Numbered from the stretch's first letter, positions 29,967-42,184 are shown. The stretch: 64,000 bases of DNA from Gemmatimonadota bacterium (GCA_022820995.1 JAJEEM010000061.1:12582-76581); one strand, 5' to 3'. Program-made: numbers and translations. The notes: generated by a model not told the origin, from the letters alone.

Positions 29967-30500
29967 ATGCAACCTCGACCCCTCGCGACGGAACGTCCCA
30001 TCCCGGAGAGTTGGGAGCCGGACCTCGAGGCGACCCTCCTCTACATCGTGCGGGGAGGCGAAATCCTCCTCATCCACAAGAAGCGAGGCCTCGGCGCCGG
30101 CAAGCTGAACGGAGCCGGGGGCAAGGTCGAACCCGGCGAGAGCACGATCGAGGCCGCGATGCGCGAGTTCCAGGAGGAACTGCGTGCGCGGCCCGTGGCG
30201 CCCCGGAAGGTCGGCGAAGTGGGATTCGAGGTGCTGAGCGGCATGTCCATCCTGATCCACGTCTTCCGGTCGGACGTGCTGGAAGGAGAGCCCGTCGAGA
30301 CGGGCGAGGCGACCCCCGTGTGGACGCCCGTCGACGACATCCCGTACGACCGGATGTGGGAGGACGACCGCCACTGGCTGCCGCACCTGATCGAGGACCG
30401 CCCGTTCCAGGCCTACGCGCGTTTCGAGGGCGATGACATGGTGCACTGCCGGGTGGTCTGTCTCTCCGACACCGACAGCTTGCGCCCGGAGTCGCTCTGA
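29967..30500 (+). CDS. NUDIX hydrolase (MutT-like)
   Basis: Nudix box 'GKVEPGESTIEAAMREFQEELRA' (GX5EX7REUXEEXGU). Confidence 0.8.
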   Translation: MQPRPLATERPIPESWEPDLEATLLYIVRGGEILLIHKKRGLGAGKLNGAGGKVEPGESTIEAAMREFQEELRARPVAPRKVGEVGFEVLSGMSILIHVFRSDVLEGEPVETGEATPVWTPVDDIPYDRMWEDDRHWLPHLIEDRPFQAYARFEGDDMVHCRVVCLSDTDSLRPESL

Positions 30501-30543
30501 AGCACCCGCGCGACCCCGTTCGGGCACCGAGACTCCGCAGGAG

Positions 30544-32400
30544 ATGAATCCGATGCCGAAGACATCGCGAAACCCGGCCCCGCTTCGTGCCGCACTCCTG
30601 GTGATCGCCGCGCTGGCGGGATTGGCTCTCCCGCGGAGCGCCGCGTCGCAGCAGCCGGTAGGGATCGCGGGACGCCTCCTCGACGCCGGCACCCGAGCAC
30701 CCATCGCGGCGGCGCTCGTCTCCATCCCCGCGCTGGACGTCTCGACGCTCACCGCCACGGACGGAGCGTTCCAACTGGTCGTCCCCCCCGGCTCGCACAC
30801 GTTCGAGATCCGGCACATCGGCTACGGTACGCGGACGACCGAGGTCGAGGCGCGGGCCGACGGCACGCTCTCGCTGGAGTTCCTCATCGAGCCGGCGGCG
30901 ATCGAGGTCGCCCCGCTCGAGGTCAACGTCGAGTGGAGACCGTCGTACCTGGAGCAGGTCGGTTTCTACGAGCGCCGGGCTCACGGCAACCCTCGAAGCA
31001 GATTCTACGATCCCGACGACATCCGCCGCGGAGGCGACCCCCTGATCGTCGGCTGGCGAATCATGAACGATAGTATCCTCAACCTGAGCCGGGCCACCAG
31101 CTTCAGCCTGTGCACTCCACAGATCCTCATCGATGGCCGCCGGGACCGCGTCGGCTTCATGACCGGCCTCGCCTATCACCGAATAGGAGGCGTAGAGGTC
31201 CACGGCGAGCCGCACAAAGTGCCGGGCCTCGAGCCTCTGATACGCGCGGGGGGCGAGGATGGGTATTGCCCCACGGTCCTCATCTGGACACGCCAGTGGC
31301 TGACCGCGGCCGAGCTTGAAGAGCGGCGGATCGTTCTCTGCGAGCCCGACCCCGGAACGGACCGGGCTCCGCTCGTGGTCGAGGGGACGGTCACGGATGC
31401 GCTGACCGGCCTCCTCCTGCCCCGGGCGACCGTGACGGCCTGGATCACGGAACCGGGCGGTCGGGAGCGTGAGAAGGAGACGACGGCCGACGACAACGGC
31501 CGCTTCCGGTTCTGCGACCTCGATCCGCGGACGGGCGTGAAGATCTGGGCCAGGTACGCCGGCCTCGGCGGCGAACTGGCGCCCGTGTCGGGCGAGACAG
31601 CCCCCGTGACGGCCGATACGGCCCCCGTGACGCGGGATCTGGTGATCCCCATCGCTCGTCACGGCCATGTCGCCGGCCGCGTCTTCGATCGCCAGCGGGG
31701 CGAACCCGTGCCCGGGGCCGAGATCAGGCTGGCGACGGCCGAGGCCGCACCGACCCCCGGCGACCGTGGCCCGTCCGCCGAGGCCGGTTATACGACGATG
31801 AGCGACGAGCACGGTCTCTTCGCGATTCCGGACCTGATCCCCGGGGACTACGGGCTCGCCGTATCCCACCCCGACGCCGGTGTCGCCGGAGACACCATCC
31901 CGGTCCCCTCCGGTTCAACGGTGGATGTCCGCGTCGAACTCGACCCCGCGCCCGACGCCGCCTCGCCCGGAGCGGGGCCGCGGATCGTGGCTGAGCGGCG
32001 GCATCCGCGTCTCACGGAAGTCGGTTTCTACGAACGCAGGCGGGAGAGCGCGACACGCGGCCGCGGACACTTTTTCACACCGGAGCGGATTAGGGCCCTC
32101 GCGCCCACTCGCCTCACCGACATCCTCACCGAGGTGGACGGCCTGCGCGAAGTCTGCCCGCGACAGACGTGCCGCCTCGTCTCGCCGCCCGCGAGGAGAT
32201 GCTCCCACATGTCCGTCTTCCTGAACGACACGCTGGTCATTGATGGCCGCGCCTGGGACTTCGAGCAGGGGGGCGTGGACGACCTGGCGGCTCCGCATGA
32301 GATCGTCGCCATCGAGGTCTACCTGAGGGCCGTCTCCCTGCCCGGGGAGTTCGCCGCTCCATCCAACCGGTGCGGCGCGATCGTCATCTGGAGCGGGTAG
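30544..32400 (+). CDS. Exported protein with carboxypeptidase-regulatory-like beta-sandwich domains and two TonB-plug-like modules (no barrel)
   Basis: Signal peptide. Repeated 'GRLLDAGTRAPIAAALVSI / GTVTDALTGLLLPRATVTAWI / GRVFDRQRGEPVPGAEIRL' CarbopepD_reg-like starts. Two internally similar modules, each beginning 'EVGFYERR...'. Confidence 0.5.
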   Translation: MNPMPKTSRNPAPLRAALLVIAALAGLALPRSAASQQPVGIAGRLLDAGTRAPIAAALVSIPALDVSTLTATDGAFQLVVPPGSHTFEIRHIGYGTRTTEVEARADGTLSLEFLIEPAAIEVAPLEVNVEWRPSYLEQVGFYERRAHGNPRSRFYDPDDIRRGGDPLIVGWRIMNDSILNLSRATSFSLCTPQILIDGRRDRVGFMTGLAYHRIGGVEVHGEPHKVPGLEPLIRAGGEDGYCPTVLIWTRQWLTAAELEERRIVLCEPDPGTDRAPLVVEGTVTDALTGLLLPRATVTAWITEPGGREREKETTADDNGRFRFCDLDPRTGVKIWARYAGLGGELAPVSGETAPVTADTAPVTRDLVIPIARHGHVAGRVFDRQRGEPVPGAEIRLATAEAAPTPGDRGPSAEAGYTTMSDEHGLFAIPDLIPGDYGLAVSHPDAGVAGDTIPVPSGSTVDVRVELDPAPDAASPGAGPRIVAERRHPRLTEVGFYERRRESATRGRGHFFTPERIRALAPTRLTDILTEVDGLREVCPRQTCRLVSPPARRCSHMSVFLNDTLVIDGRAWDFEQGGVDDLAAPHEIVAIEVYLRAVSLPGEFAAPSNRCGAIVIWSG

Positions 32401-33235
32401 CCGCGGACGCGATGGCTCTCAGCGCGGCGACGCGCTCTTCCGTGGGCGGATGGGTCGTGAAGAGGGAGGTGAGACCGCGACGTCGACCCGCGAAGGGGTT
32501 CACGATCGCGAGCGAGGCGCCGGCCGGGTTCACCTCCATCGGGATGCGGCGGGCGCCGGATTCCAGGCGCTTCAGGGCGCCGGCCAGACCCATGGGATCG
32601 CCCGTGATCTCGCCCCCGGTGCGGTCCGCCTGAAACTCGTTGCGGCGGCTGATCGCCATCTGGATGATGACGGCCGCCAGCGGGGCGACGATGGCCATGA
32701 CCAGCATGCCGAGCGGGTTGTCGCCGTCATCGCGTCCGCCGCCGAAGATGAAGCCCCAGCGGGCGATCGAGGCGATCATCGCGATCGCGCCCGCCATCGT
32801 CGCCGCGACCGTGCCGACGAGCATGTGCCGGTGCTTGATGTGGGCCAGTTCGTGCGCGATCACGCCGTCCAGTTCGCGGGGAGGCAGCGCGCGCAGGATC
32901 CCCTGCGTGAAGCAGACCACGGCGTGCTCCGGGTTGCGTCCCGTCGCGAAGGCGTTCGGCTGCGGCTGCGGCGAGACGGCCACGACCGGCGCCGGCAGCC
33001 CCGCCCGCTTCCGCAGCCGCTCCACCCGGTCGTACAGGTCCGGCGCCTGCGACCGGTCGACGATCCGGGCCCGGTACATGCGCAGGACGACCCGGTCGCT
33101 GAACCAGTACATCCCGAAGTTCATCGCCCCCGAAAGCACCAGGAACAGCACCGCGCCCTGCTGCCCGAACAGCATCTGGCCGGCGAACACCATGAGAAGC
33201 GTCAGGCCCGTCATGAGGCCGAATACCTTGAACAT
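32384..33235 (-). CDS. htpX: M48 zinc metalloprotease HtpX
   Basis: 'HELAHIKHRH' HExxH motif, downstream Glu ligand, and 4 TM segments arranged as in HtpX. Confidence 0.85.
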   Translation of the reverse strand: MFKVFGLMTGLTLLMVFAGQMLFGQQGAVLFLVLSGAMNFGMYWFSDRVVLRMYRARIVDRSQAPDLYDRVERLRKRAGLPAPVVAVSPQPQPNAFATGRNPEHAVVCFTQGILRALPPRELDGVIAHELAHIKHRHMLVGTVAATMAGAIAMIASIARWGFIFGGGRDDGDNPLGMLVMAIVAPLAAVIIQMAISRRNEFQADRTGGEITGDPMGLAGALKRLESGARRIPMEVNPAGASLAIVNPFAGRRRGLTSLFTTHPPTEERVAALRAIASAATRSR

Positions 33236-33277: not shown

Positions 33278-33985
33278 CTAGCGTCCGACCGCGGCGCCCC
33301 GCGCCGCAGCGATGTCCGCATCCGCCGCCAGCAGGTCGCAGAACACGAAACCATCCCGTTCCACGACCTCGCCGCGTGCGACCGGGATCGGCCGGGACAG
33401 GATCGGACCGTCCCACACGAAGGTATGGAATTCTCCGTTCTCCCCGCACGGATCGACCCCTTCCGGGAGGTCGGCGAGGAAGCGGGCGTCGAAAGCGCGG
33501 CCCGCGAAGGAGGCGTCGAGCGCCGCCGGGTCGATGCAGACCGCGATGGCCTCGAACCCGTCCCGGATGAAGGAACGCGCGAGCGCCCCCGTGGGTTGCC
33601 TCCAGATCGGAAAGAGACACTCCAGCCCGGAGCCGGCGAGTTGCCGTTCGCGATACTCGCGGAGGTCCTCCAGGAAGATGTCCCCGAAGGCCACGCGGCG
33701 GATTCCGTCCTCTTGGAGGCGGTCGAAGGCCTCTCCCATCGCCCGTTCATAGATTTTATTCGAGGACTGCGGCGGGACGACGACCTCGACGAGCGGGATG
33801 CCGATGGCCGCCGCCTGGTCGCGCACCAGCGCGCGCCGCACGCCGTGCATGCTCACCCGGTCGTAGGCGTCGGTCACCGTCGTGATCAGGGTCTCGACCC
33901 GCCAGGCTCCGGACTGCTGCAGCGCATGCAGGGCCAGGGCGCTGTCCTTGCCGCCGCTGAAGCACATCGCGATGCGTTCGCTCAC
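33278..33985 (-). CDS. PP-loop ATP pyrophosphatase of the Dph6/MJ0570 (COG2102) family
   Basis: 'FSGGKDS' PP-loop at the N-terminus, followed by a conserved 'EFHTFV' C-terminal block. The start (GTG, VSERIAM) is uncertain. Confidence 0.6.
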   Translation of the reverse strand: MSERIAMCFSGGKDSALALHALQQSGAWRVETLITTVTDAYDRVSMHGVRRALVRDQAAAIGIPLVEVVVPPQSSNKIYERAMGEAFDRLQEDGIRRVAFGDIFLEDLREYRERQLAGSGLECLFPIWRQPTGALARSFIRDGFEAIAVCIDPAALDASFAGRAFDARFLADLPEGVDPCGENGEFHTFVWDGPILSRPIPVARGEVVERDGFVFCDLLAADADIAAARGAAVGR

Positions 33986-34004
33986 TCCGGGCCCGCTCCG
34001 GCGC

Positions 34005-35510
34005 TCACTCCATGACCGTCGCCCGGAACGCCCCCGTGAGCACGCGGCCCTCTCGCTTGACCTGCACCCAGATCGTGTACTCGCCCGGCTGAGGGAATGC
34101 GAACGGGAACTCGACCACGCCGGCGGGGGACGCCGCGCCGGCGCCGCCCATCGGCGACCCTCCGCCCATCGGCGACCCTTCGGGCGCGAGCACCGAGAGC
34201 GAGCCCATGGAAATCGTGCCCGCGGGATGCAGGTGCACGAACACCGCCCCGTCATCTCGCGTGAGCGCGGCGTGGCTGCGCATCCCCATGTAGGGTTCCA
34301 GGTCGGCCGGCTTCTCGTCGGGATCCCACACCCTGAACGACAGCACCGTTTCCTCGTCGACCCGAAGCTCCCGGTCGCCCTGCCACTCGAGGATGGAACC
34401 GTCGGCCAGCGGCGCCTCGGAGCGCGGCCCGGCGACCGCCATCGGAAGTCCGGTCCACGCCGAGTCGTCAGGGTCCGGCAGCAGGTCGGCGCCCTCGCCG
34501 GCCTCGCCGGGAGCCGCGAGCGCCGCCGCGTCGACGGTCACCGTGTCGACGACCGTCTGCGCGAAGCCGGACTCGTTGACGATGTCGCCGTAGATGCGGT
34601 ATTCGCCCGGCGGCAGGTCCGGCCACGGGACGCGGAAGGTGGACGAGTCCACGGGGACGGGGTGCACGTGGGCGAACGCGTCCATGCCCGGCGCCCCGAC
34701 CACGAACATGTGCATGAGCTTGCCGTGGTCCGGCACCAGCGGAGTCCAGTCCCGGCCCCGCCAGGCGGGATCGGTGATCGCGATCTCCAGAGCGGGCGTC
34801 CCTCCGTCGCGCACGATCGCGCCCTCCACGGCGAGGCGCTCGAAGATCCCGCTGCGGACGTCCCGGTCGACTGCTTCCCACCAGGCGTTCCCCAGGTAGA
34901 GGAGGCCCGCGACTCCCACGGCGGTGAGGACCATGGCGATCCGGGCGCGGCGGCGCCGACCCGGCCCCGCCGCCTCCCCCGCCGGAACCTGGCTCTCCCG
35001 CACCGCGGCCCCCGTGATCGAGACCACGCCGGCGACCAGGAGCAGCGCGAGCGCGGCCAGGATCCAGCCGAGACCCGGCGGCAGGTCGAGCACTCCGAGC
35101 ATGACCGAGGTCACGGGAACCGAGACCTCGCCGCTCCCCCGGGCCCCCTCCACCGCGACCTCGACCCGGTACGCGCCCACCGTCATGAGCCACAGTTCCG
35201 CAGCGTACAGTTCGGGATCGCCCGCCACGGGAGCGGCGACGTCGGCGGGCGGCGCGCCGCCTTCCGGGGCCGCGTCCCAGCGCACGGGACGCACGGTCAC
35301 GCGGTCCGCACCGCCGCCCGACACGCGGACGGAGACCTCCGCCAGCCCCGGGATGACCTCCGGCGGACGGATGACGACGGAGACAGGCCAGGGCCCCGCC
35401 TCGCCGGAGAAGAAGACGTTCTTGCTCCCGACGTGCCCTGTCGCCACGACGTACAGCCCGGCCACGAACGCCGCTGTCCGCGCGAGACGGGCGACCCGGC
35501 AGGGCCTCAC
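34005..35510 (-). CDS. Exported/membrane-anchored hypothetical protein with two HxHP-containing beta-rich domains
   Basis: N-terminal hydrophobic signal, a central TM segment and two similar motifs ('DAFAHVHPVP' and 'AVFVHLHPAG'). GTG start overlaps the stop of the upstream membrane-protein gene (GTGA). Contains a small in-frame repeat GSPMGGGSPMGG. Confidence 0.5.
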   Translation of the reverse strand: MRPCRVARLARTAAFVAGLYVVATGHVGSKNVFFSGEAGPWPVSVVIRPPEVIPGLAEVSVRVSGGGADRVTVRPVRWDAAPEGGAPPADVAAPVAGDPELYAAELWLMTVGAYRVEVAVEGARGSGEVSVPVTSVMLGVLDLPPGLGWILAALALLLVAGVVSITGAAVRESQVPAGEAAGPGRRRRARIAMVLTAVGVAGLLYLGNAWWEAVDRDVRSGIFERLAVEGAIVRDGGTPALEIAITDPAWRGRDWTPLVPDHGKLMHMFVVGAPGMDAFAHVHPVPVDSSTFRVPWPDLPPGEYRIYGDIVNESGFAQTVVDTVTVDAAALAAPGEAGEGADLLPDPDDSAWTGLPMAVAGPRSEAPLADGSILEWQGDRELRVDEETVLSFRVWDPDEKPADLEPYMGMRSHAALTRDDGAVFVHLHPAGTISMGSLSVLAPEGSPMGGGSPMGGAGAASPAGVVEFPFAFPQPGEYTIWVQVKREGRVLTGAFRATVME

Positions 35511-36727
35511 CGGCGGACGCGCAGGCACCAGTTGCCCAGCCACAGGCCCGAGCGGGCGGAGACGAACGCGATCGGCAGCGCCCACCACGCCGCGGCGACG
35601 AACCGCGACGCGGAGAAGTCGCCCGCGAGGTACGGGCCGCCGTGCCAGAACACGTTCTGCCAGGCGCCGGGCGCTGCGGTGTAGCCCCACGTGTCGCCCT
35701 GGAAGAAGTAGTTCCGCGCCCCTTCGGAGAGCATGAAGTCGGCGAAGACCCACTGGATCGCGCCGAAGGTGGCCACGAAGGCGACGCCCCCCACGGCCGC
35801 GATCCGCCAGTCCGCCGATGCCCGCCCGGGCGCCTCGCCCGGCGCCGAATGTCGCCGCAGCAGGAGGTCGATCACGATCGCGGGCGCGAACAGGAGGAGC
35901 GGGAACTCGGGCGCCACCATGTGGGTGACCGGACGCAGGATCGGTGCGAGCATCGGCTCCGCCGGGAAGAGCGGCAGCACCCACATCATCGCCAGGGCGA
36001 CCCCGGTGTAGACCAGCGCCGCGCACGTCGCCGGCCAGCGCATCTGCCCGGCCCTCCCGATGGCGAAGAAGAGGACGGGGAAGACCGCCGCCATGATGAG
36101 GTGGAACGCCGCCCCGTGCATCTGGTTCGGGAACGTGTACTCCATGAGCAGCACGGAGAGCGACAGGATCAGCATCGCGGCGCTGAACACATAGGCCCCC
36201 GCGAGCTTGCGCCGGCCCGCCTCCGAGGCGCGGTTGTGCCACGACAGCGCCATCAGCAGAGCGCCCACCTGGATCGCATAGATTCCAAGCGCCAGGACCA
36301 CGTGGGGCGGGCTCAGGATCTCGACGTCGAGCCCGTACGCGTTGTGCCACCAGTCGTCGAGCGGCGCGGACGTGAGCATGGCGATCGCGCCCCAGATCGC
36401 CACCCAGGCCCCGAGCGGCGCACGGAAGCCCCACATGCGGACGGAGCGTCCGACCTCCGCGTCCGTCCCCGAAAACGTCGTCTTCAGCGCGAGCCACCCG
36501 CACGACAGCCCCGCCGCCAGCCCGCCCGCGTAGACGAGCAGGTGCGCGGGCGTGAAGAGCGTGTCCCGCCCGATCGTCCGGTGCCACGAGATGTCCCACG
36601 TAATGCCCACGATCACGGCTCCCGAGGCGAACAGGACCGCGGCCAGAGGCCACGGAATGCTGTCCGCCGACTCCGCCGCGCCCTCGCGCCGCGCGAAGAC
36701 GGAGGCGGGTGCTGCTGTCGATTCCAT
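35507..36727 (-). CDS. Polytopic membrane protein, hypothetical (about 10 TM)
   Basis: Strongly hydrophobic 406 aa ORF with realistic composition. Contains 'WDISWHRTIGRD' and 'LDDWWHNAYGLD' loop motifs. Confidence 0.55.
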   Translation of the reverse strand: MESTAAPASVFARREGAAESADSIPWPLAAVLFASGAVIVGITWDISWHRTIGRDTLFTPAHLLVYAGGLAAGLSCGWLALKTTFSGTDAEVGRSVRMWGFRAPLGAWVAIWGAIAMLTSAPLDDWWHNAYGLDVEILSPPHVVLALGIYAIQVGALLMALSWHNRASEAGRRKLAGAYVFSAAMLILSLSVLLMEYTFPNQMHGAAFHLIMAAVFPVLFFAIGRAGQMRWPATCAALVYTGVALAMMWVLPLFPAEPMLAPILRPVTHMVAPEFPLLLFAPAIVIDLLLRRHSAPGEAPGRASADWRIAAVGGVAFVATFGAIQWVFADFMLSEGARNYFFQGDTWGYTAAPGAWQNVFWHGGPYLAGDFSASRFVAAAWWALPIAFVSARSGLWLGNWCLRVRR

Positions 36728-36847
36728 CGCGTTCCCCCCGAATTCCTTCCTCCCGCGGCCGGCCGCTCCATGGGCCGCGGGCTATCGACACATCCGATCC
36801 ACCGCCCGAAGATAGGTCTGGTTCAACCGAGATGCAGGAGATTCAAC

Positions 36848-38371
36848 GTGAGATCAGAGAGATTCCGGCACCCGCGCCCGAGGTGGACCGGGAGCGCGCT
36901 CAGAGTCACCGCCCCGGCTGCGGCCGCCGTCGCCCTTGGCGTCGCCGGCTGCGCCCGCCCGGACCCGGCATCGGACCCCGCCGCCTCCGATTCGTCCTCT
37001 GCCGCGCTTGCGGCGGACCAGATCGACGCGATTCACGCCATCGCCGCTTCCCCGATCGAGGCGGGTCGCGCCGCGGGCATGTCCATCGCGGTCGTGCGCG
37101 GGACGGACACGCTCCTGATCGAGGAGTTCGGTCACGCCGACCTCGAACTGGACGTGCTCACGCCCCCGGACGCCGTCTACGAGGTCGGATCCGTGACCAA
37201 GCAGTTCACCGCGGCCGCCGTTCTCCTCCTGCAGGAGGAAGGGAAGCTCTCCCTCGACGACCCGCTCACGAGGTGGCTGCCCGACTACCCCGTCGGGGAC
37301 CGGACCGTCACCGTCCGACAACTCCTGGACCACACCTCGGGCATCAAGGGCTACACCGAGATGGAGCATCTCTGGGCGGAGCTCGCTCCCCTCGAACTCC
37401 CGCGGGACACGCTCGTCACGCTCTTCGCCGCCGAGCCGTTCGATTTCGAACCCGGCACGGCGATGACCTACAACAACTCGGGCTACTTCCTCGCCGGACT
37501 CGTCATCGAGGCGGCGAGCGGGATCAGCTACGAGGACTTCGTCGAGGAGCGCCTCTTCGGCTCGGCCGGGATGGAGAACTCCCGCTACTGCCACAAGGAC
37601 GAACTCACGCCCAACCGGGCGAAGGGGTACGAGCCGGGCGACGACGGGCTGCACCCGGCGCCGTACCTCGACCACCAGTGGCCCTACGCCGCGGGGTCGC
37701 TCTGCTCCACGGTGCGCGACCTCGTCGCCTGGAACCAGGCCCTCCACGGAGACGGGGAGGGCGGCGGGATCCTGACTCCCGAGAGCTATCGCCTGATGAT
37801 CACGCCCGAGCCCCTGCTCGACGGCACGGATCTGCGCTACGCGAAGGGCCTCGCGATCACCGATCGGGACGGGACCCCGCGGATCGGACACGGCGGCGGG
37901 ATCTTCGGCTACGTCACCGACCTCCGCTACGTCCCATCCGAGGATCTGTCCATCGCGGTGCTCATCAACACGGCCGGAGGCGCCTCGCCCGCCGAGGTCG
38001 CGGGACAGATCGAAGATGTGGTGCTCGGCGCGCCGGCGGAGACCGCCACGGCGACCTTCGAGGGCGACCCCTCACCCTACGCGGGCCGCTACGAAGGCCC
38101 GGCCCGCGGCCAGCGCATCACCGCGACGGTGGCGGCCGAGGACGGACAACTGACCATCGACACGGGAGGCGGCGAGCCGGCCACCCTCTCGTGGCTTGGC
38201 GGCGACGAGTTCGCCGATGGGCGGACCCTCTACCGCTTCATCCGCGGAGACGATGCCGAAGCCGCCGAAGCCGCCGAAGCCGCCGGCGGTGCCGGTGCGA
38301 CCGCCCCTTTCAATGAACTTCGGATGGACGTCGTTTCGGGACACTTCGTCCTGCGGAGGATGACCCCATGA
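36848..38371 (+). CDS. Serine hydrolase of the beta-lactamase/penicillin-binding-protein (class C-like) family, lipoprotein
   Basis: Lipobox 'ALGVAGC' and SxxK motif 'GSVTKQF'. YxN-like 'YNNSGY' and a 'HGGG' (KTG-equivalent) region. Probable GTG start; the exact start is uncertain. Confidence 0.75.
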   Translation: MRSERFRHPRPRWTGSALRVTAPAAAAVALGVAGCARPDPASDPAASDSSSAALAADQIDAIHAIAASPIEAGRAAGMSIAVVRGTDTLLIEEFGHADLELDVLTPPDAVYEVGSVTKQFTAAAVLLLQEEGKLSLDDPLTRWLPDYPVGDRTVTVRQLLDHTSGIKGYTEMEHLWAELAPLELPRDTLVTLFAAEPFDFEPGTAMTYNNSGYFLAGLVIEAASGISYEDFVEERLFGSAGMENSRYCHKDELTPNRAKGYEPGDDGLHPAPYLDHQWPYAAGSLCSTVRDLVAWNQALHGDGEGGGILTPESYRLMITPEPLLDGTDLRYAKGLAITDRDGTPRIGHGGGIFGYVTDLRYVPSEDLSIAVLINTAGGASPAEVAGQIEDVVLGAPAETATATFEGDPSPYAGRYEGPARGQRITATVAAEDGQLTIDTGGGEPATLSWLGGDEFADGRTLYRFIRGDDAEAAEAAEAAGGAGATAPFNELRMDVVSGHFVLRRMTP

Positions 38372-40236
38372 CCACGCATCGAACCCCTGCTACCCGCGCT
38401 CTCCGCGTGTTCCCTGCGGGGCTGGTCCCGGCCGTCACGGCCCTTGCCGCCGCGTCGGCCACAGCCGCCGCTCCCGCGTCGGCCCAGGAGGTCGCGGGGC
38501 TCGTCGGGGCGGAATCGAGCGAACTCGCACCGGTCGTGGAGCGCTACTCCGCCGACCGCGTCGCCCTCGGGCGCCGGTGGACCGTCTCGTACTCTCCTGA
38601 ACGCACCCGCCGATTCAACGGGTTTTTCTCCGGCTGGCAACGGGAGATCGACGCGCTTGATTTTGAGGCGTTGAGTCTCGAGGGACGCGTGGATTACGTC
38701 CTCCTCCTCAACGAACTGCGCTACCAGCTGGACCTGCTGACGCGCGAGTCGGGGCTCGCCGCCGAGATGGACGGGTTCATCTCCTTCACTTCGCTCATCG
38801 TGGAGCTGGAGGAACGTCGCCGGCGCCGGGAACCGGTGGAGTCGGAGTCCGCCGCGGCCCGTCTCGCGGAGCTCCCGGCCGAGATCGAGGCCGCCCGAGG
38901 CGAAGTCGAAGCCCGGCTCAGGGGCGGAGGAGGCGTCTCGCGGATCGTCGCGCTCCGGGCGGTCACGGCGCTGGCCGAGCGCACGCGTCTCCTCGAGGAC
39001 TGGTACGAGCACTATGCCGGCTACGACCCCGTCTTCACATGGTGGAACGAGGACCCGTACGCCCGAGCGAAGGCCGCCCTCGAAGGCTACGCGACTTTCC
39101 TGCGCGAGTCGGTCATCGGCTACCGCGAGGGCGAGGACGAACCCATCGTCGGCGACCCGATCGGCGCGGAGGGTCTCGCCGCGGACCTCCGGCGCGAGAT
39201 GATCCCCTACAGCCCTGCGGAGCTCATCGCGATCGCCGAGCGGGAGTACGCGTGGTGCGAGGAGCGGATGATCGAAGCGTCGCGCGAACTCGGCTACGGG
39301 GACGACTGGCGGGCGGCCCTCGAGTACGTGAAGACGCTGCACCGCGACCCCGGCGACCAACCGCAGATGATCCGGGAACTCGCCGACGAGGCGCTCGCCT
39401 TCGTCACGGAACGCGACCTCGTCACCGTCCCCCCGCTCGCGGACGAGATCTGGCGCATCGAGATGATGTCGCCCGAGCGCCAGAAGGTGTCGCCCTTCTT
39501 CCTCGGCGGAGAGGTGATCCAGGTCTCCTTCCCCACCGACGGGATGGAGCACGAATACAAGCTCATGAGCATGCGGGGGAACAACGAACACTTCTCCCGC
39601 GCGACCGTCCACCACGAACTCATTCCCGGACACCACCTGCAGGGGTTCATGACGAGCCGCTTCAACTCCCACCGGCGCGCGTTCTCCACCCCGTTCTGGG
39701 GCGAGGGGTGGGCGCTCTACTGGGAGATGCTGCTGTGGGACCTCGGCTTCCCGTCGACCCCCGAGGACCGCATCGGCATGCTCTTCTGGCGCATGCACCG
39801 CACGGCCCGGATCATCTTCTCCCTCTCCTTCCACCTCGAGCGCATGACCCCGCAGGAGGCGATCGACTTCCTCGTCGAACGGGTCGGGCACGAGCGCGCG
39901 AACGCGGAGGCGGAGGTGCGGCGGAGCTTCAACGGCTCCTACTCCCCGCTGTACCAGGTCGCCTACATGATCGGCGGGCTCCAGTTCCGGGCCCTGCACG
40001 AGCAGCTCGTGCAGTCGGGGGAGATGACGAACCGCGCCTTCCACGACGCGATCCTCAAGGGCGGCCGCATGCCGGTCGAGATGGTGCGCGCGCGCCTGCT
40101 CGGCGAGGCGCCGCCGAAGGACTTCGAATCGACTTGGCGCTTCCAGGGCGACCCGCTGCGCCGCACGACCTCCGGGGAACCGGCCTCGCTGGAGCCGGCC
40201 TCGAAGCGGCCCGCCTTGCCGGAGACGGCACACTGA
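38368..40236 (+). CDS. DUF885 family protein (putative exported metallo-peptidase-like)
   Basis: Signal peptide and the 'HHELIPGHHLQ' block typical of DUF885. Overlaps the upstream gene by 4 nt. Confidence 0.7.
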   Translation: MTTHRTPATRALRVFPAGLVPAVTALAAASATAAAPASAQEVAGLVGAESSELAPVVERYSADRVALGRRWTVSYSPERTRRFNGFFSGWQREIDALDFEALSLEGRVDYVLLLNELRYQLDLLTRESGLAAEMDGFISFTSLIVELEERRRRREPVESESAAARLAELPAEIEAARGEVEARLRGGGGVSRIVALRAVTALAERTRLLEDWYEHYAGYDPVFTWWNEDPYARAKAALEGYATFLRESVIGYREGEDEPIVGDPIGAEGLAADLRREMIPYSPAELIAIAEREYAWCEERMIEASRELGYGDDWRAALEYVKTLHRDPGDQPQMIRELADEALAFVTERDLVTVPPLADEIWRIEMMSPERQKVSPFFLGGEVIQVSFPTDGMEHEYKLMSMRGNNEHFSRATVHHELIPGHHLQGFMTSRFNSHRRAFSTPFWGEGWALYWEMLLWDLGFPSTPEDRIGMLFWRMHRTARIIFSLSFHLERMTPQEAIDFLVERVGHERANAEAEVRRSFNGSYSPLYQVAYMIGGLQFRALHEQLVQSGEMTNRAFHDAILKGGRMPVEMVRARLLGEAPPKDFESTWRFQGDPLRRTTSGEPASLEPASKRPALPETAH

Positions 40237-40255: not shown

Positions 40256-42184
40256 ATGACTCGCGATCCGCATACGACGGCGATCACCGGCATCCTCCTC
40301 GCTCTGGGCGCCGCGGCTGGCGGCGGGAGCGAGCTTCACGCGCAGGACGGCGGCTGGAACGGTGGCACGGACGGCGCCCTCTCGGTCGACCAGCTCCTCT
40401 CCATTGAATCGGTCGTCGGAGGCGCACCCGCCTGGTCCCCGGACGGCTCGACGATCCTGTTCGAGTCGGGGCTCTCCGGCGGTCTCATGACCCTGCCTCC
40501 CGACGGCGGCTTCCCCACGCGCGTGCCCGTGGACATGGGCGGCTCCGGCCACTTCCTCTCCTCGCAGATGCCGGGCTGGTCCCCGTCCGGGACGTGGATC
40601 TCATACGTGTCGGACAAGAGCGGCGCCCCGGAGATCTGGCTCTGGTCGACGCGTGACGGGGCCGATGTCCGGCTCACCGACCTCGGCGCGCGCATAAATT
40701 CCATGCGCTGGTCGCCGGACGAGCGCTCCATCGTCTTCGCGGGAGACCGCTACGGGAACTACGACATCTGGAAAGTGGACGTCGGCACGCGGCGCGTGGA
40801 CCGCCTCACCGATGACAAGCGCTACGAGGTCTTCCCCACCTGGACGCCCGATTCCCGTCACGTCCTGTACGTCCGCCTCGACGACGCGTGGGAGGACCAC
40901 GACGTGATCGAGATCGACGCCGCCGGCGGCAGCCCGCGCACGGTGATCGAGGACCGAGATTTCTTCGACTACGGCGCGGGCGCCACGTTCGGGTATCCGA
41001 GCGTATCCCCGGACGGCAGCCAGATCCTCTTCCGCTCGCACCGGAGCGGCTGGATCAACTACTGGCTTGCGCCACGAGAGGGAGGCGACCCCCGCCCGGT
41101 CGCCGCGGCCGAGGCCGACCAGAGCGCCGCGGCGTGGTCTCCCGACGGACGCTGGATCGCCTACACCGAGAACCACAACGGGCACCACGACCTGCGCGTG
41201 GTGCCGGCGGACGGGGGCGAGCCGCGAGTGCTCGTGTCACCGAAGGGCGGCGTCGCGTCGAGCCCCTCGTGGTCTCCGGATGGCCAGGCGATCGCCTACC
41301 TCCAGGAGGACCTTCTGAGCCCCCGCGACCTCCATGTCGTCTCGCTCGGGGACGGGCGCAGCCGGCAGCTCACCTCCTCCATGCCCGCCGGCAACTTCGG
41401 CGCCCGGCTCGTCGCGCCGGAGAAGATCCACTACGAAAGCACGGACGGGTACTCGATCCCGGCCCACCTCTACCGGCCCCCGGGGGCCGCGGCCGGCGAC
41501 GGCCTCCCCGGCGTGATGTGGATCCACGGGGGTCCCACGTCGCAGTTCCACGACACCTTCCAGCAGCACGTCCAGTTCTTCGTCCAGCGCGGATACGTCG
41601 TCCTCCTGCCCAACATCCGCGGGAGTTCGGGCTACGGGAAGGCGTTCGCCGACGCGAACAACGGCTGCTGGGGGCACTGCGATCTGGAGGATGTCGTCGC
41701 GGGCGCGGACTACCTGCGGGCGCTCCCGGAGGTCGATCCCGAGCGGATCGGGATCACGGGGACGAGTTACGGCGGCGTGATGAGCATGTACGCGGTCGCC
41801 TTCGCGCCGGACGCCTTCCGCGCCGCGATCCCCGGATCCGGCTACACGGACTGGGTCCACTTCCAACACGGCGAGAACGAACTCCGGCACATCAAGCTGC
41901 TCGACCACGAACTCGGCCCGTTCGAGACGAGCGAGGACGTGTGGAGCCACAGTTCGTCGATCTCGCACGTGGCAGACGTCTCGACGCCGATCCTCCTCGT
42001 GCACGGCGTCGGCCGCTATCCGGGCTCCGACCAGTCCGAGATCTTCGCGCGGGCGCTGGAGAACCATTACAAGCCGTTCCAGTACAAGACGTACCCGAAC
42101 GAGAACTACTACGTGTACGGGAAGGCGAACCGCCGGCAGATGCTCCTCGACATGCTCGACTTCTTCGAGCAGTTCCTGAAGTGA
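40256..42184 (+). CDS. S9 family serine peptidase (acylaminoacyl-peptidase/dipeptidyl-peptidase-like) with N-terminal TolB-like beta-propeller
   Basis: Repeated 'WSPDG' propeller blades. Catalytic 'GTSYGG' nucleophile elbow and a C-terminal Asp/His region. Confidence 0.85.
   Translation: MTRDPHTTAITGILLALGAAAGGGSELHAQDGGWNGGTDGALSVDQLLSIESVVGGAPAWSPDGSTILFESGLSGGLMTLPPDGGFPTRVPVDMGGSGHFLSSQMPGWSPSGTWISYVSDKSGAPEIWLWSTRDGADVRLTDLGARINSMRWSPDERSIVFAGDRYGNYDIWKVDVGTRRVDRLTDDKRYEVFPTWTPDSRHVLYVRLDDAWEDHDVIEIDAAGGSPRTVIEDRDFFDYGAGATFGYPSVSPDGSQILFRSHRSGWINYWLAPREGGDPRPVAAAEADQSAAAWSPDGRWIAYTENHNGHHDLRVVPADGGEPRVLVSPKGGVASSPSWSPDGQAIAYLQEDLLSPRDLHVVSLGDGRSRQLTSSMPAGNFGARLVAPEKIHYESTDGYSIPAHLYRPPGAAAGDGLPGVMWIHGGPTSQFHDTFQQHVQFFVQRGYVVLLPNIRGSSGYGKAFADANNGCWGHCDLEDVVAGADYLRALPEVDPERIGITGTSYGGVMSMYAVAFAPDAFRAAIPGSGYTDWVHFQHGENELRHIKLLDHELGPFETSEDVWSHSSSISHVADVSTPILLVHGVGRYPGSDQSEIFARALENHYKPFQYKTYPNENYYVYGKANRRQMLLDMLDFFEQFLK

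Follow-up and report, generated by a model that had tools for sequence, protein, structure and literature searches.

Copper membrane monooxygenases (CuMMOs; pMMO and AMO) control biological methane and ammonia oxidation. They are encoded in xmoCAB operons, which usually stand alone in the genome, are hard to express recombinantly, and their evolutionary origin is not known. Subunit C (AmoC/PmoC; Pfam accession PF04896, NCBIfam TIGR03078; e.g., PDB 9leg_C, 9cl6_C, 7s4l_C, and 1yew_C) is a protein of about 250-290 residues with six transmembrane helices. It carries two intramembrane copper sites, CuC, with Asp-His-His ligands, and CuD, with Asn-His-His ligands (PMC13058606), and which of the two is the active site is still debated. 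Subunit B (PmoB/AmoB; Pfam accession PF04744) has a signal peptide that is cleaved to leave an N-terminal histidine, followed by a periplasmic beta sandwich, a two-helix membrane hairpin, and a further periplasmic beta sandwich; the N-terminal histidine and an HxH pair in the N-terminal domain form the CuB site (PMC11725843). An extracytoplasmic Ig-like domain with an N-terminal histidine is also paired with a polytopic membrane protein, in a small, self-contained module, in the CopC-CopD and YcnI-YcnJ copper uptake systems and in the N-terminal-His "anglerase" domains fused to HupE/UreJ permeases (PMC12537917).

Here we describe a gene pair, annotated only as hypothetical, from a 64,000-nucleotide stretch of DNA (the window) of a Gemmatimonadota bacterium (GCA_022820995.1 JAJEEM010000061.1:12582-76581). 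The initial annotation, made from the sequence alone, reported a 10-helix membrane protein whose TGA stop overlaps the GTG start of a 501-residue exported protein with two beta-rich halves, each containing an H-x-H-P motif, and a Gly/Pro/Met-rich tandem insert. This observation is confirmed: both open reading frames, here termed A and B, and the overlap between them are present (Table 1), and the two H-x-H-P motifs are invariant in 30-32 homologues. However, B is not a plain exported protein with two halves; it is predicted to have a signal peptide, three beta-sandwich domains, and a membrane hairpin between the first and second of these.

Table 1. Features of the A-B gene pair; positions are those of the 64,000-nucleotide window, and residues are those of the protein named.
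Feature	Position	Strand	Residues	Description
Gene A	35507..36727	-	1-406	ATG at 36727, TGA ending at 35507; integral membrane protein with 10 predicted transmembrane helices; member of an unnamed family (2573 representatives at 50% identity)
AmoC/PmoC-like core of A	36230..36652	-	26-166	four helices, TM1-TM4
Site 1 motif of A	36542..36595	-	Asp45, His49, His62	DISWHRTIGRDTLFTPAH; aligns with the CuC ligands Asp-x3-His-x12-His of AmoC/PmoC; RDT and FTP second-shell residues also shared
Site 2 motif of A	36302..36358	-	Asp124, His128, His142	DDWWHNAYGLDVEILSPPH; aligns with the CuD ligands Asn-x3-His-x13-His of AmoC/PmoC, with Asp in place of Asn
C-terminal part of A	35510..36223	-	169-406	six helices; invariant Asp287; no detectable relative outside the family
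A-B junction	35507..35510	-		GTGA overlap of the stop codon of A and the start codon of B
Gene B	34005..35510	-	1-501	GTG at 35510, stop at 34005; membrane-anchored periplasmic protein (predicted)
Signal peptide of B	35436..35510	-	1-25	predicted; ends ATG|H
B domain 1	35091..35435	-	26-140	Ig-like, YtkA-like beta sandwich beginning with invariant His26, the predicted mature N-terminus
Membrane hairpin of B	34851..35078	-	145-220	two helices
B domain 2	34521..34838	-	225-330	invariant His262, Lys264, His267, His281, and His283 (PDHGKLMH...FAHVHP)
B domain 3	34008..34478	-	345-501	duplicate of domain 2; invariant Met408, Met410, His413, His426, and His428 (EPYMGMxSH...FVHLHP) and an invariant DPDDS motif
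Tandem insert of B	34143..34178	-		GSPMGGGSPMGG; GSPMGG x2 in a variable, disordered loop of domain 3; not conserved

In 83 of 84 independent loci B lies directly downstream of A on the same strand, which is far beyond chance, and the one remaining locus has only 163 nucleotides after A. Conservation of the two genes as neighbours had been set beforehand as a condition for the metal-handling interpretation, and it is fulfilled. The spacing between the genes in relatives runs from -9 to about +400 nucleotides and is often -3 or 0. No third gene is conserved beside the pair: when we looked for a PmoA analogue, a redox partner, or a copper chaperone, no family occurred in more than 12 of 85 loci, and the recurrent ones were peptidases or amidohydrolases. 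CuMMO operons likewise usually stand alone. A scan for promoters and terminators was uninformative. The family occurs in at least 569 species genomes of Gemmatimonadota, Acidobacteriota, Verrucomicrobiota, and others, soil and marine bacteria among them, and these hosts are mostly not known as methane or ammonia oxidizers. Conservation across phyla is unusually high for both proteins (about 45-55% identity, with 68 invariant columns in A and about 85 in B). The family has no Pfam or NCBIfam name, look-ups of its sequence clusters gave no names or cultured hosts, and we found no literature on it; searches for distant PmoC-like or AmoC-like families also returned nothing relevant.

The initial annotation could not place either protein in a named family. 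We found that residues ~44-143 of A are a remote homologue of AmoC/PmoC. The scores of A are below the curated cut-offs (PF04896, E = 0.0024, 17.7 bits against 26.7; TIGR03078, E = 1e-3, 18.7 against 280.6; NF041641, 16.5 against 319), and Pfam AmoC reached E ≤ 1 in only 10 of 36 family members, although it was the only recurring hit. However, a phmmer search of PDB sequences with residues 25-166 returned 14 hits, all of them AmoC/PmoC chains (best E = 1.1e-5), and hhalign comparisons with an alignment of AmoC/PmoC fragments gave probabilities of 86% (E = 4.8e-6) and 92% (E = 6e-7). Because the homologue search used to build this AmoC profile was seeded with a 91-residue AmoC fragment and returned only fragments of 160 residues or less, the profile covers only the core region. 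When an AmoC HMM was run against 4415 background ORFs, it picked out 83 A orthologues, ranking them above all but 2 of the background ORFs; the only 2 other ORFs hit were both at E above 2.

These alignments place all six ligand columns of CuC and CuD in register with the two motifs of A, the CuC triad on two consecutive helices and the CuD triad on the next two, and the second-shell residues (SWH, RDT, FTP-H) are also shared. The hit to M. capsulatus PmoC spans chain residues 155-249, which puts Asp45 on residue 156 and, if that stretch is ungapped, His142 on residue 245, matching the ligand numbering of this protein. The site 1 triad is invariant in the set of A sequences labelled A1, and both motifs are present in 84 of 84 loci and in 90% of the representatives that cover both. 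On the other hand, some divergent subfamilies replace the His ligands with Glu, Asp, or Gln yet keep B. By a positive-inside reading of the loops, the sites lie at the periplasmic end of the helices.

Only about 100 of 406 residues are alignable (to profile positions 125-214 of 245), and A lacks the N-terminal helices of PmoC. The AlphaFold model of A (pLDDT 88, pTM 0.88) has 10 long helices, and a Foldseek search with it gave no significant hit, AmoC being at rank 19 with E = 1.3; a full-length profile of A also found nothing among PDB sequences, and only the N-terminal segment as a single sequence recovered AmoC/PmoC. The C-terminal part of A has no PmoA or other PDB sequence relative, and hhalign gave 0.6% against AmoC and 0.4% against the N-terminal half, so it is not a duplicate of the latter. 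No AMO/PmoA-like hit was found in A, B, or conserved neighbours, and the pair is not in an xmoCAB operon.

The layout of B copies that of PmoB without sequence similarity, and both proteins contain HxH motifs and are encoded next to the C-like subunit. A hydrophobic leader followed by small-x-[A/G] and then H[VI]G[ST] is found in 82 of 83 loci, so that predicted cleavage would leave an N-terminal histidine. The AlphaFold model (pLDDT 87, pTM 0.82) shows strands at residues 32-135, helices at 145-172 and 183-220, and strands at 228-326 and 350-500, and the hydrophobic segments of the hairpin are conserved. There is thus one more sandwich than in PmoB. Domains 2 and 3 are detectably duplicated (hhalign E = 5e-5), with His262 aligned to Met408. 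In contrast to PmoB, domain 1 has no conserved histidine other than His26, the HxH pairs being in domains 2 and 3, and it is not detectably cupredoxin-like. No PF04744 hit was obtained at E ≤ 1 in 30 members, and neither the PDB sequence searches with B and its separate domains nor the top 50 Foldseek hits contained PmoB or AmoB.

The Pfam YtkA (YtkA/CtaK-like, PF13115) model matched domain 1 in 13 of 30 members (best E = 2.3e-6), and one homologue has a precomputed PF13115 hit, but the window protein itself scores 18.2 bits against a cut-off of 25.9. CopC was hit in only 2 of 30 members, at E about 0.009, and A has no CopD hit in Pfam or NCBIfam, so the pair does not have the composition of a CopC/CopD-type uptake system. 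The only PDB sequence relative was marginal, the 110-residue "copper resistance protein" 9ll2, whose Met-rich segment (MMPEMPGMPAM) corresponds to a Met-free segment in B. Foldseek with the whole B model returned generic Ig-like arrays; the periplasmic metal-capture protein Zcp (DUF4198, PDB 9mhl; PMC12663993), which has an Ig-like fold with a multi-His metal site, appeared at rank 36 (E = 4e-5), but with a low TM-score (0.14/0.26) and 12% identity, generic arrays such as complement C3 scored better, and B has no Pfam DUF4198 hit.

Thus, the initial interpretation of a metal-handling module is supported in part. It points in the right direction, because both proteins carry invariant His/Asp/Met clusters and form an obligate conserved neighbour pair. 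However, three of its arguments fail. The Gly/Pro/Met insert, likened to motifs of periplasmic Cu/Ni-binding proteins, is not conserved: it lies in a loop that varies in length and sequence (pLDDT below 50 at residues 446-459, Met 2-fold enriched) and is doubled only in the closest relatives, and we therefore rejected it as a functional motif. The genomic context is not conserved either, so the DUF305 and cupin genes that the initial annotation mentioned in the window cannot be used as evidence. Finally, B is predicted to be membrane-anchored and not just exported.

Our preferred, though tentative, explanation is that A and B form a two-subunit copper protein complex in the inner membrane that is a distant relative of the CuMMOs. 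In this view, the first four helices of A would hold one or two copper ions in two neighbouring 2-His-1-carboxylate sites at the periplasmic end of the bundle, the counterparts of CuC and CuD, the proposed CuMMO active site, and the six extra helices would take the place of the missing PmoA subunit and PmoC N-terminus. B would take the place of PmoB: its N-terminal histidine and the 4-His and Met+3-His sites of its duplicated domains would bind copper above the membrane and load or electronically serve the A site. The complex would be a copper-dependent redox enzyme (oxidase or monooxygenase-like) acting on a probably membrane-soluble or small substrate. What the analysis establishes is the homology of the core, the conservation of all six ligand columns, the A-B pairing, the histidine at the predicted N-terminus, and the domain architecture of B as modelled, whereas the identity of the metal as copper and its binding, the formation of a complex, the periplasm-facing position of the sites, and catalysis itself are inferred. 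The sub-threshold scores, the negative full-length profile and Foldseek searches with A, the short alignable region, the absence of PmoA and of similarity to PmoB, the position of the HxH motifs, the lack of a conserved redox partner or pathway gene nearby, and the subfamilies with altered ligands all weigh against this view.

Almost as plausible, and equally tentative, is that the pair is a copper acquisition or delivery system and not an enzyme. B would catch periplasmic copper with its N-terminal histidine and relay it through its 4-His and Met/His domains, and A would accept it at the intramembrane sites and either move it across the membrane or hand it to membrane cuproenzymes, much as in CopC-CopD, YcnI-YcnJ, or the anglerase-permease fusions. 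On the one hand, domain 1 matches YtkA-like and, weakly, CopC models and a copper resistance protein, and an N-terminal histidine on an Ig-like domain tethered to a membrane partner is the arrangement described for the Cu-binding Ang-1/Ang-2 domains, which showed little oxidase activity (PMC12537917). The His262/Met408 swap and the Met-enriched loop are features of Cu(I)/Cu(II) trafficking proteins, Zcp is among the Foldseek hits, the small, self-contained module stands alone in varied, housekeeping-like contexts, and the altered ligands of some subfamilies could reflect changed metal preference. On the other hand, the only detectable relatives of A are the catalytic subunit of CuMMOs, which is not known to transport metal, and A shows no similarity to CopD, HupE/UreJ, P-type ATPases, or other known metal permeases in the Pfam, NCBIfam, and PDB searches. 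The conserved ligands cluster at one end of the bundle, and apart from Asp287 no Met/His/Cys ladder across the membrane is conserved. B carries two extra His/Met domains and its own membrane hairpin, and its conservation across phyla (about 45-50% identity) seems to us high for a metallochaperone, although this is a judgement and not a measured comparison.

It is unlikely, although possible, that the sites bind a metal other than copper (Zn, Ni, Fe, or Mn) and that the module is a periplasm-facing metal sensor, buffer, or a hydrolytic or other non-redox metalloenzyme. The CuC site of PmoC reportedly held zinc in some crystal structures, the 3-His sites of the structurally similar Zcp bind Zn and, in vitro, also Co, Ni, and Cu (PMC12663993), the Glu/Asp/Gln variants would suit harder metals, and neighbouring genes are often peptidases or amidohydrolases. 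However, invariant Met408 and Met410 beside three histidines, the Met-enriched loop, and the N-terminal histidine are features associated with copper, the YtkA/CopC-like hits point to copper as well, and the peptidase neighbours are not conserved and seem common across these contigs. Least likely is that the resemblance to AmoC/PmoC is convergence or chance between helical membrane proteins sharing two short D-x3-H...H motifs, A being unrelated: although all family scores are sub-threshold, the full-length profile and Foldseek searches were negative, and hydrophobic helices inflate alignment scores, the two motifs have identical internal spacing (4/13 and 4/14), the same order, and about the same separation, non-ligand polar residues are shared, only AmoC/PmoC appears in the PDB and Pfam hit lists, the hhalign E-values come with a clean negative control from the C-terminal half, and the AmoC HMM is selective for A orthologues.

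A bolder reading, which is possible but less likely than not, is that A-B is a previously unrecognized, minimal two-subunit branch of the CuMMO superfamily, a catalytically active copper enzyme built on the CuC/CuD core and spread through Acidobacteriota, Gemmatimonadota, Verrucomicrobiota, and other abundant soil and marine phyla, which oxidizes a so far unknown substrate and may resemble the ancestral scaffold from which pMMO and AMO arose. In sequence, the family keeps exactly the two-site core of the CuMMOs, and it is reduced to two genes, very strongly conserved, and present in hundreds of non-methanotroph, non-nitrifier genomes. If the pair is an enzyme, a widespread and unassigned oxidation chemistry exists in dominant soil phyla; if it is a copper relay, it would show what the CuMMO core evolved from. 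Either way, it gives a new and possibly more tractable system for studying CuC/CuD-type sites, and it would give a first functional lead for a family of about 2,500 representatives at 50% identity.

Two genes, A and B, lie on the minus strand of the window, and the junction between them reads GTGA, so that the start codon of B overlaps the stop codon of A (see the table below). The observation made in the initial annotation, that of an overlapping gene pair whose second product carries two similar histidine motifs, held up: B contains both FAHVHP and FVHLHP, as well as a GSPMGGGSPMGG tandem. Because the window has 67-73% G+C, long spurious ORFs overlap this region, one of which is a 928-aa reading frame that merely extends the frame of B upstream; homologs, however, fix the start of B near the GTG.

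Positions of the gene pair and of neighboring features in the window
Position	Strand	Feature	Remarks
36727-35507	-	Gene A, 406 aa	ATG start, TGA stop
35510-34005	-	Gene B, 501 aa	GTG start
34143-34178	-	GSPMGG tandem in B	
30433-32400	+	655-aa protein with CarboxypepD_reg domains	Weak DUF4198 (periplasmic metal-capture family) match, E 3.5e-4, below cut-off; about 1.6 kb beyond the 3' end of B, on the opposite strand
33278-34255	-	Dph6/MJ0570-like ATP pyrophosphatase (PF01902)	Listed ORF overlaps the 3' end of B by about 250 nt, but the Pfam match starts at residue 94; the real start is probably just downstream of the B stop, with no terminator-like site between them; neighbor family shared by only 7 of the 85 loci
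32384-33235 (-), 35642-38371 (+), 38368-40236 (+), 40256-42184 (+)		HtpX-like M48 peptidase, beta-lactamase-family protein divergent from A, DUF885, S9 prolyl oligopeptidase	Envelope or secreted hydrolases

Database searches returned more than 7,500 relatives of A and more than 2,800 relatives of B, all of them annotated as hypothetical and with essentially no Pfam assignment; the closest ones come from Candidatus Palauibacter (Gemmatimonadota), which is probably the source of the window. An exhaustive profile search with A identified 2,573 representatives at 50% identity (461 of them at E<=1e-30), none of which is longer than 433 aa, and thus no fused forms appear among the 150 representatives listed. 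In a scan of one genome per species, A was found in at least 569 species, belonging to Gemmatimonadota, Acidobacteriota (Vicinamibacterales, Thermoanaerobaculia, Blastocatellia), Verrucomicrobiota, Eisenbacteria and Methylomirabilota. Two contigs carrying the pair are labeled as MAGs of Klebsiella pneumoniae and Clostridia; given the distribution of the family, these look like mis-binned or mislabeled contigs.

In 83 of 84 loci, B lies immediately downstream of A on the same strand, with a spacing that runs from -9 to about +400 nt and is often -3 or 0; the single exception has only 163 nt of contig after A. By contrast, all-against-all clustering of the flanking ORFs identified no other family in more than 12 of 85 loci, and the recurrent families, which are also found near the pair in other phyla, are peptidases, amidohydrolases and similar proteins. 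The surroundings of the pair in the window are rich in envelope or secreted hydrolases. Its neighbors there, namely the HtpX-like M48 peptidase, the Dph6-like ATP pyrophosphatase, the beta-lactamase-family protein, DUF885 and the S9 peptidase, carry no information about its function. The initial annotation also cited DUF305 and cupin genes in the window; since the genomic context of the pair is not conserved, such genes would not bear on its function.

AlphaFold gives a confident 10-helix model of A (pLDDT 88, pTM 0.88). An alignment of 36 homologs that share 49-78% identity with A has 68 invariant columns, including Asp45, His49, His62, Asp124, His128, Asn129, Asp134, His142 and Asp287, as well as many Trp residues. 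Searches against Pfam and NCBIfam yielded one weak but specific lead, AmoC/PmoC (E 0.0024 and 1e-3, respectively, both below the cut-off), and this was the only family that recurred among members (10 of 36). We then tested this lead in several ways. First, residues 25-166 of A searched against all PDB sequences returned 14 hits, every one of which is an AmoC or PmoC chain, with the best three at 1e-5 to 4e-5. Second, profile-profile comparison with an alignment of genuine AmoC/PmoC fragments gave 86% probability (E 4.8e-6) for A and 92% (E 6e-7) for its N-terminal part alone, whereas the C-terminal half, which serves as a negative control, gave 0.6%. Third, an HMM built from the same AmoC/PmoC fragments and searched against 4,415 six-frame ORFs from 85 loci hit 83 A orthologs and only two other ORFs, both at E>2. 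Finally, the alignments are anchored on polar rather than hydrophobic residues: wDiSWHrtIgRDTlFTPaH against qDaSWHqvIiRDTsFTPsH, and LDDWWH...SPPH against LNEWGH...SAPLH.

These columns are the Asp/His/His of the CuC site and the Asn/His/His of the CuD site, each of which is described as two His plus Asp or Asn (PMC13058606). The hit to M. capsulatus PmoC spans chain residues 155-249, which places Asp45 on residue 156 and, if that stretch is ungapped, His142 on residue 245; this matches the ligand numbering of that protein. Both motifs, with identical spacing, are present in 84 of 84 loci and in 78 of the 87 representatives that cover both motifs. Loop charges suggest that both sites sit at the periplasmic ends of TM1/2 and TM3/4, although this is our inference. 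The homology has limits: only about 100 residues, corresponding to four helices, can be aligned, a search of PDB with a full-length profile found nothing, and a Foldseek search with the whole model was not significant, with AmoC at rank 19 (E 1.3, 20% identity over 191 columns). For the six C-terminal helices, no relative was found, including PmoA.

More distant representatives of A (P0386, P0396, P0409, P0414, P0426, P0390, P0413 and P0433 in our set of homologs; genomic loci L085-L087) form divergent subfamilies in which the His ligands are replaced. The variants seen are Asp-Glu-His/Asp-Gln-Gln, Asp-Asp-His/Glu-Thr-Gln and Asp-Gln-His/Asp-His-His. For two of these, the downstream gene is a clear B homolog with its His motifs intact, whereas a third (P0433) is followed by a small gene that looks like an acyl-carrier-protein gene, with no B directly downstream.

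The predicted structure of B (pLDDT 87) comprises, in order, a leader helix, a beta sandwich (residues ~32-135), two long helices (145-172 and 183-220) and two further beta sandwiches (228-326 and 350-500). In 82 of 83 loci, the leader ends in small-x-Ala/Gly, directly followed by His-[Val/Ile]-Gly-[Ser/Thr]; the mature protein should therefore start with His26, which is invariant. Domain 1 matches the YtkA-like model in 13 of 30 members (best E 2.3e-6) and CopC in 2 of 30, and it weakly matches a 110-aa copper resistance protein, although it lacks the Met-rich segment of that protein. Domains 2 and 3 are duplicates of each other (hhalign E 5e-5): PDHGKLMH...FAHVHP aligns with EPYMGMxSH...FVHLHP, which puts His262 opposite Met408, and thus one domain offers four invariant His, whereas the other offers Met408/Met410 plus three His. 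The GSPMGG tandem lies in a loop of domain 3 that is disordered in the model and varies in length and sequence, and it is doubled only in the closest relatives. Across the family, this loop is 2-fold enriched in Met. In several Acidobacteriota/Thermoanaerobaculia homologs it is a His/Met-rich low-complexity stretch (e.g., GMGHGAHVHHQHG and MDHSAHMGHG; columns ~540-600 of the alignment of B homologs), whereas in the Palauibacter-type proteins it is Gly/Ser/Pro/Met.

No sequence relative of B was found in PDB. Foldseek hits for B are generic Ig-like arrays, with the zinc-capture protein Zcp (DUF4198) among them, and PmoB does not appear. Even so, the layout of B is the layout of PmoB: an N-terminal His after a signal peptide, then a sandwich, a membrane hairpin and a sandwich. 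In PmoB, the CuB site uses the N-terminal His amine and three His side chains (PMC11725843).

The analysis itself establishes the remote homology of the A core to AmoC/PmoC, with all six ligand columns and some second-shell residues conserved, the obligate A-B pairing, and the N-terminal His, domain duplication and membrane hairpin of B; that the metal is copper, that A and B form a complex, and what such a complex does are inferred, the first of these from the Met/His chemistry, the N-terminal His, the YtkA/CopC-like hits and the identity of the homologous sites. The suggestion in the initial annotation that the pair may be a metal-handling module is partly supported. We consider the homology likely, but any assignment of function is tentative. 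The reading that we favor, by a narrow margin, is that of a copper redox enzyme related to CuMMOs, because the only known relatives are catalytic, second-shell residues are conserved, and both proteins are very strongly conserved across phyla. A copper capture or relay system is almost as plausible, given the trafficking-like features of B and the analogy to CopC-CopD, YcnI-YcnJ and the "anglerase"-permease fusions. Another metal or a non-redox role appears unlikely. Convergence or chance is the least likely reading.

Neither protein reaches any Pfam or NCBIfam threshold, and all source annotations are hypothetical. Searches of the literature for distant PmoC/AmoC-like families found nothing relevant, although the collection searched is incomplete and a prior description cannot be excluded. 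While the core itself belongs to a known type, that of CuMMO subunit C as judged by remote homology, it appears here in a new two-gene architecture, with a new partner and in new host phyla.
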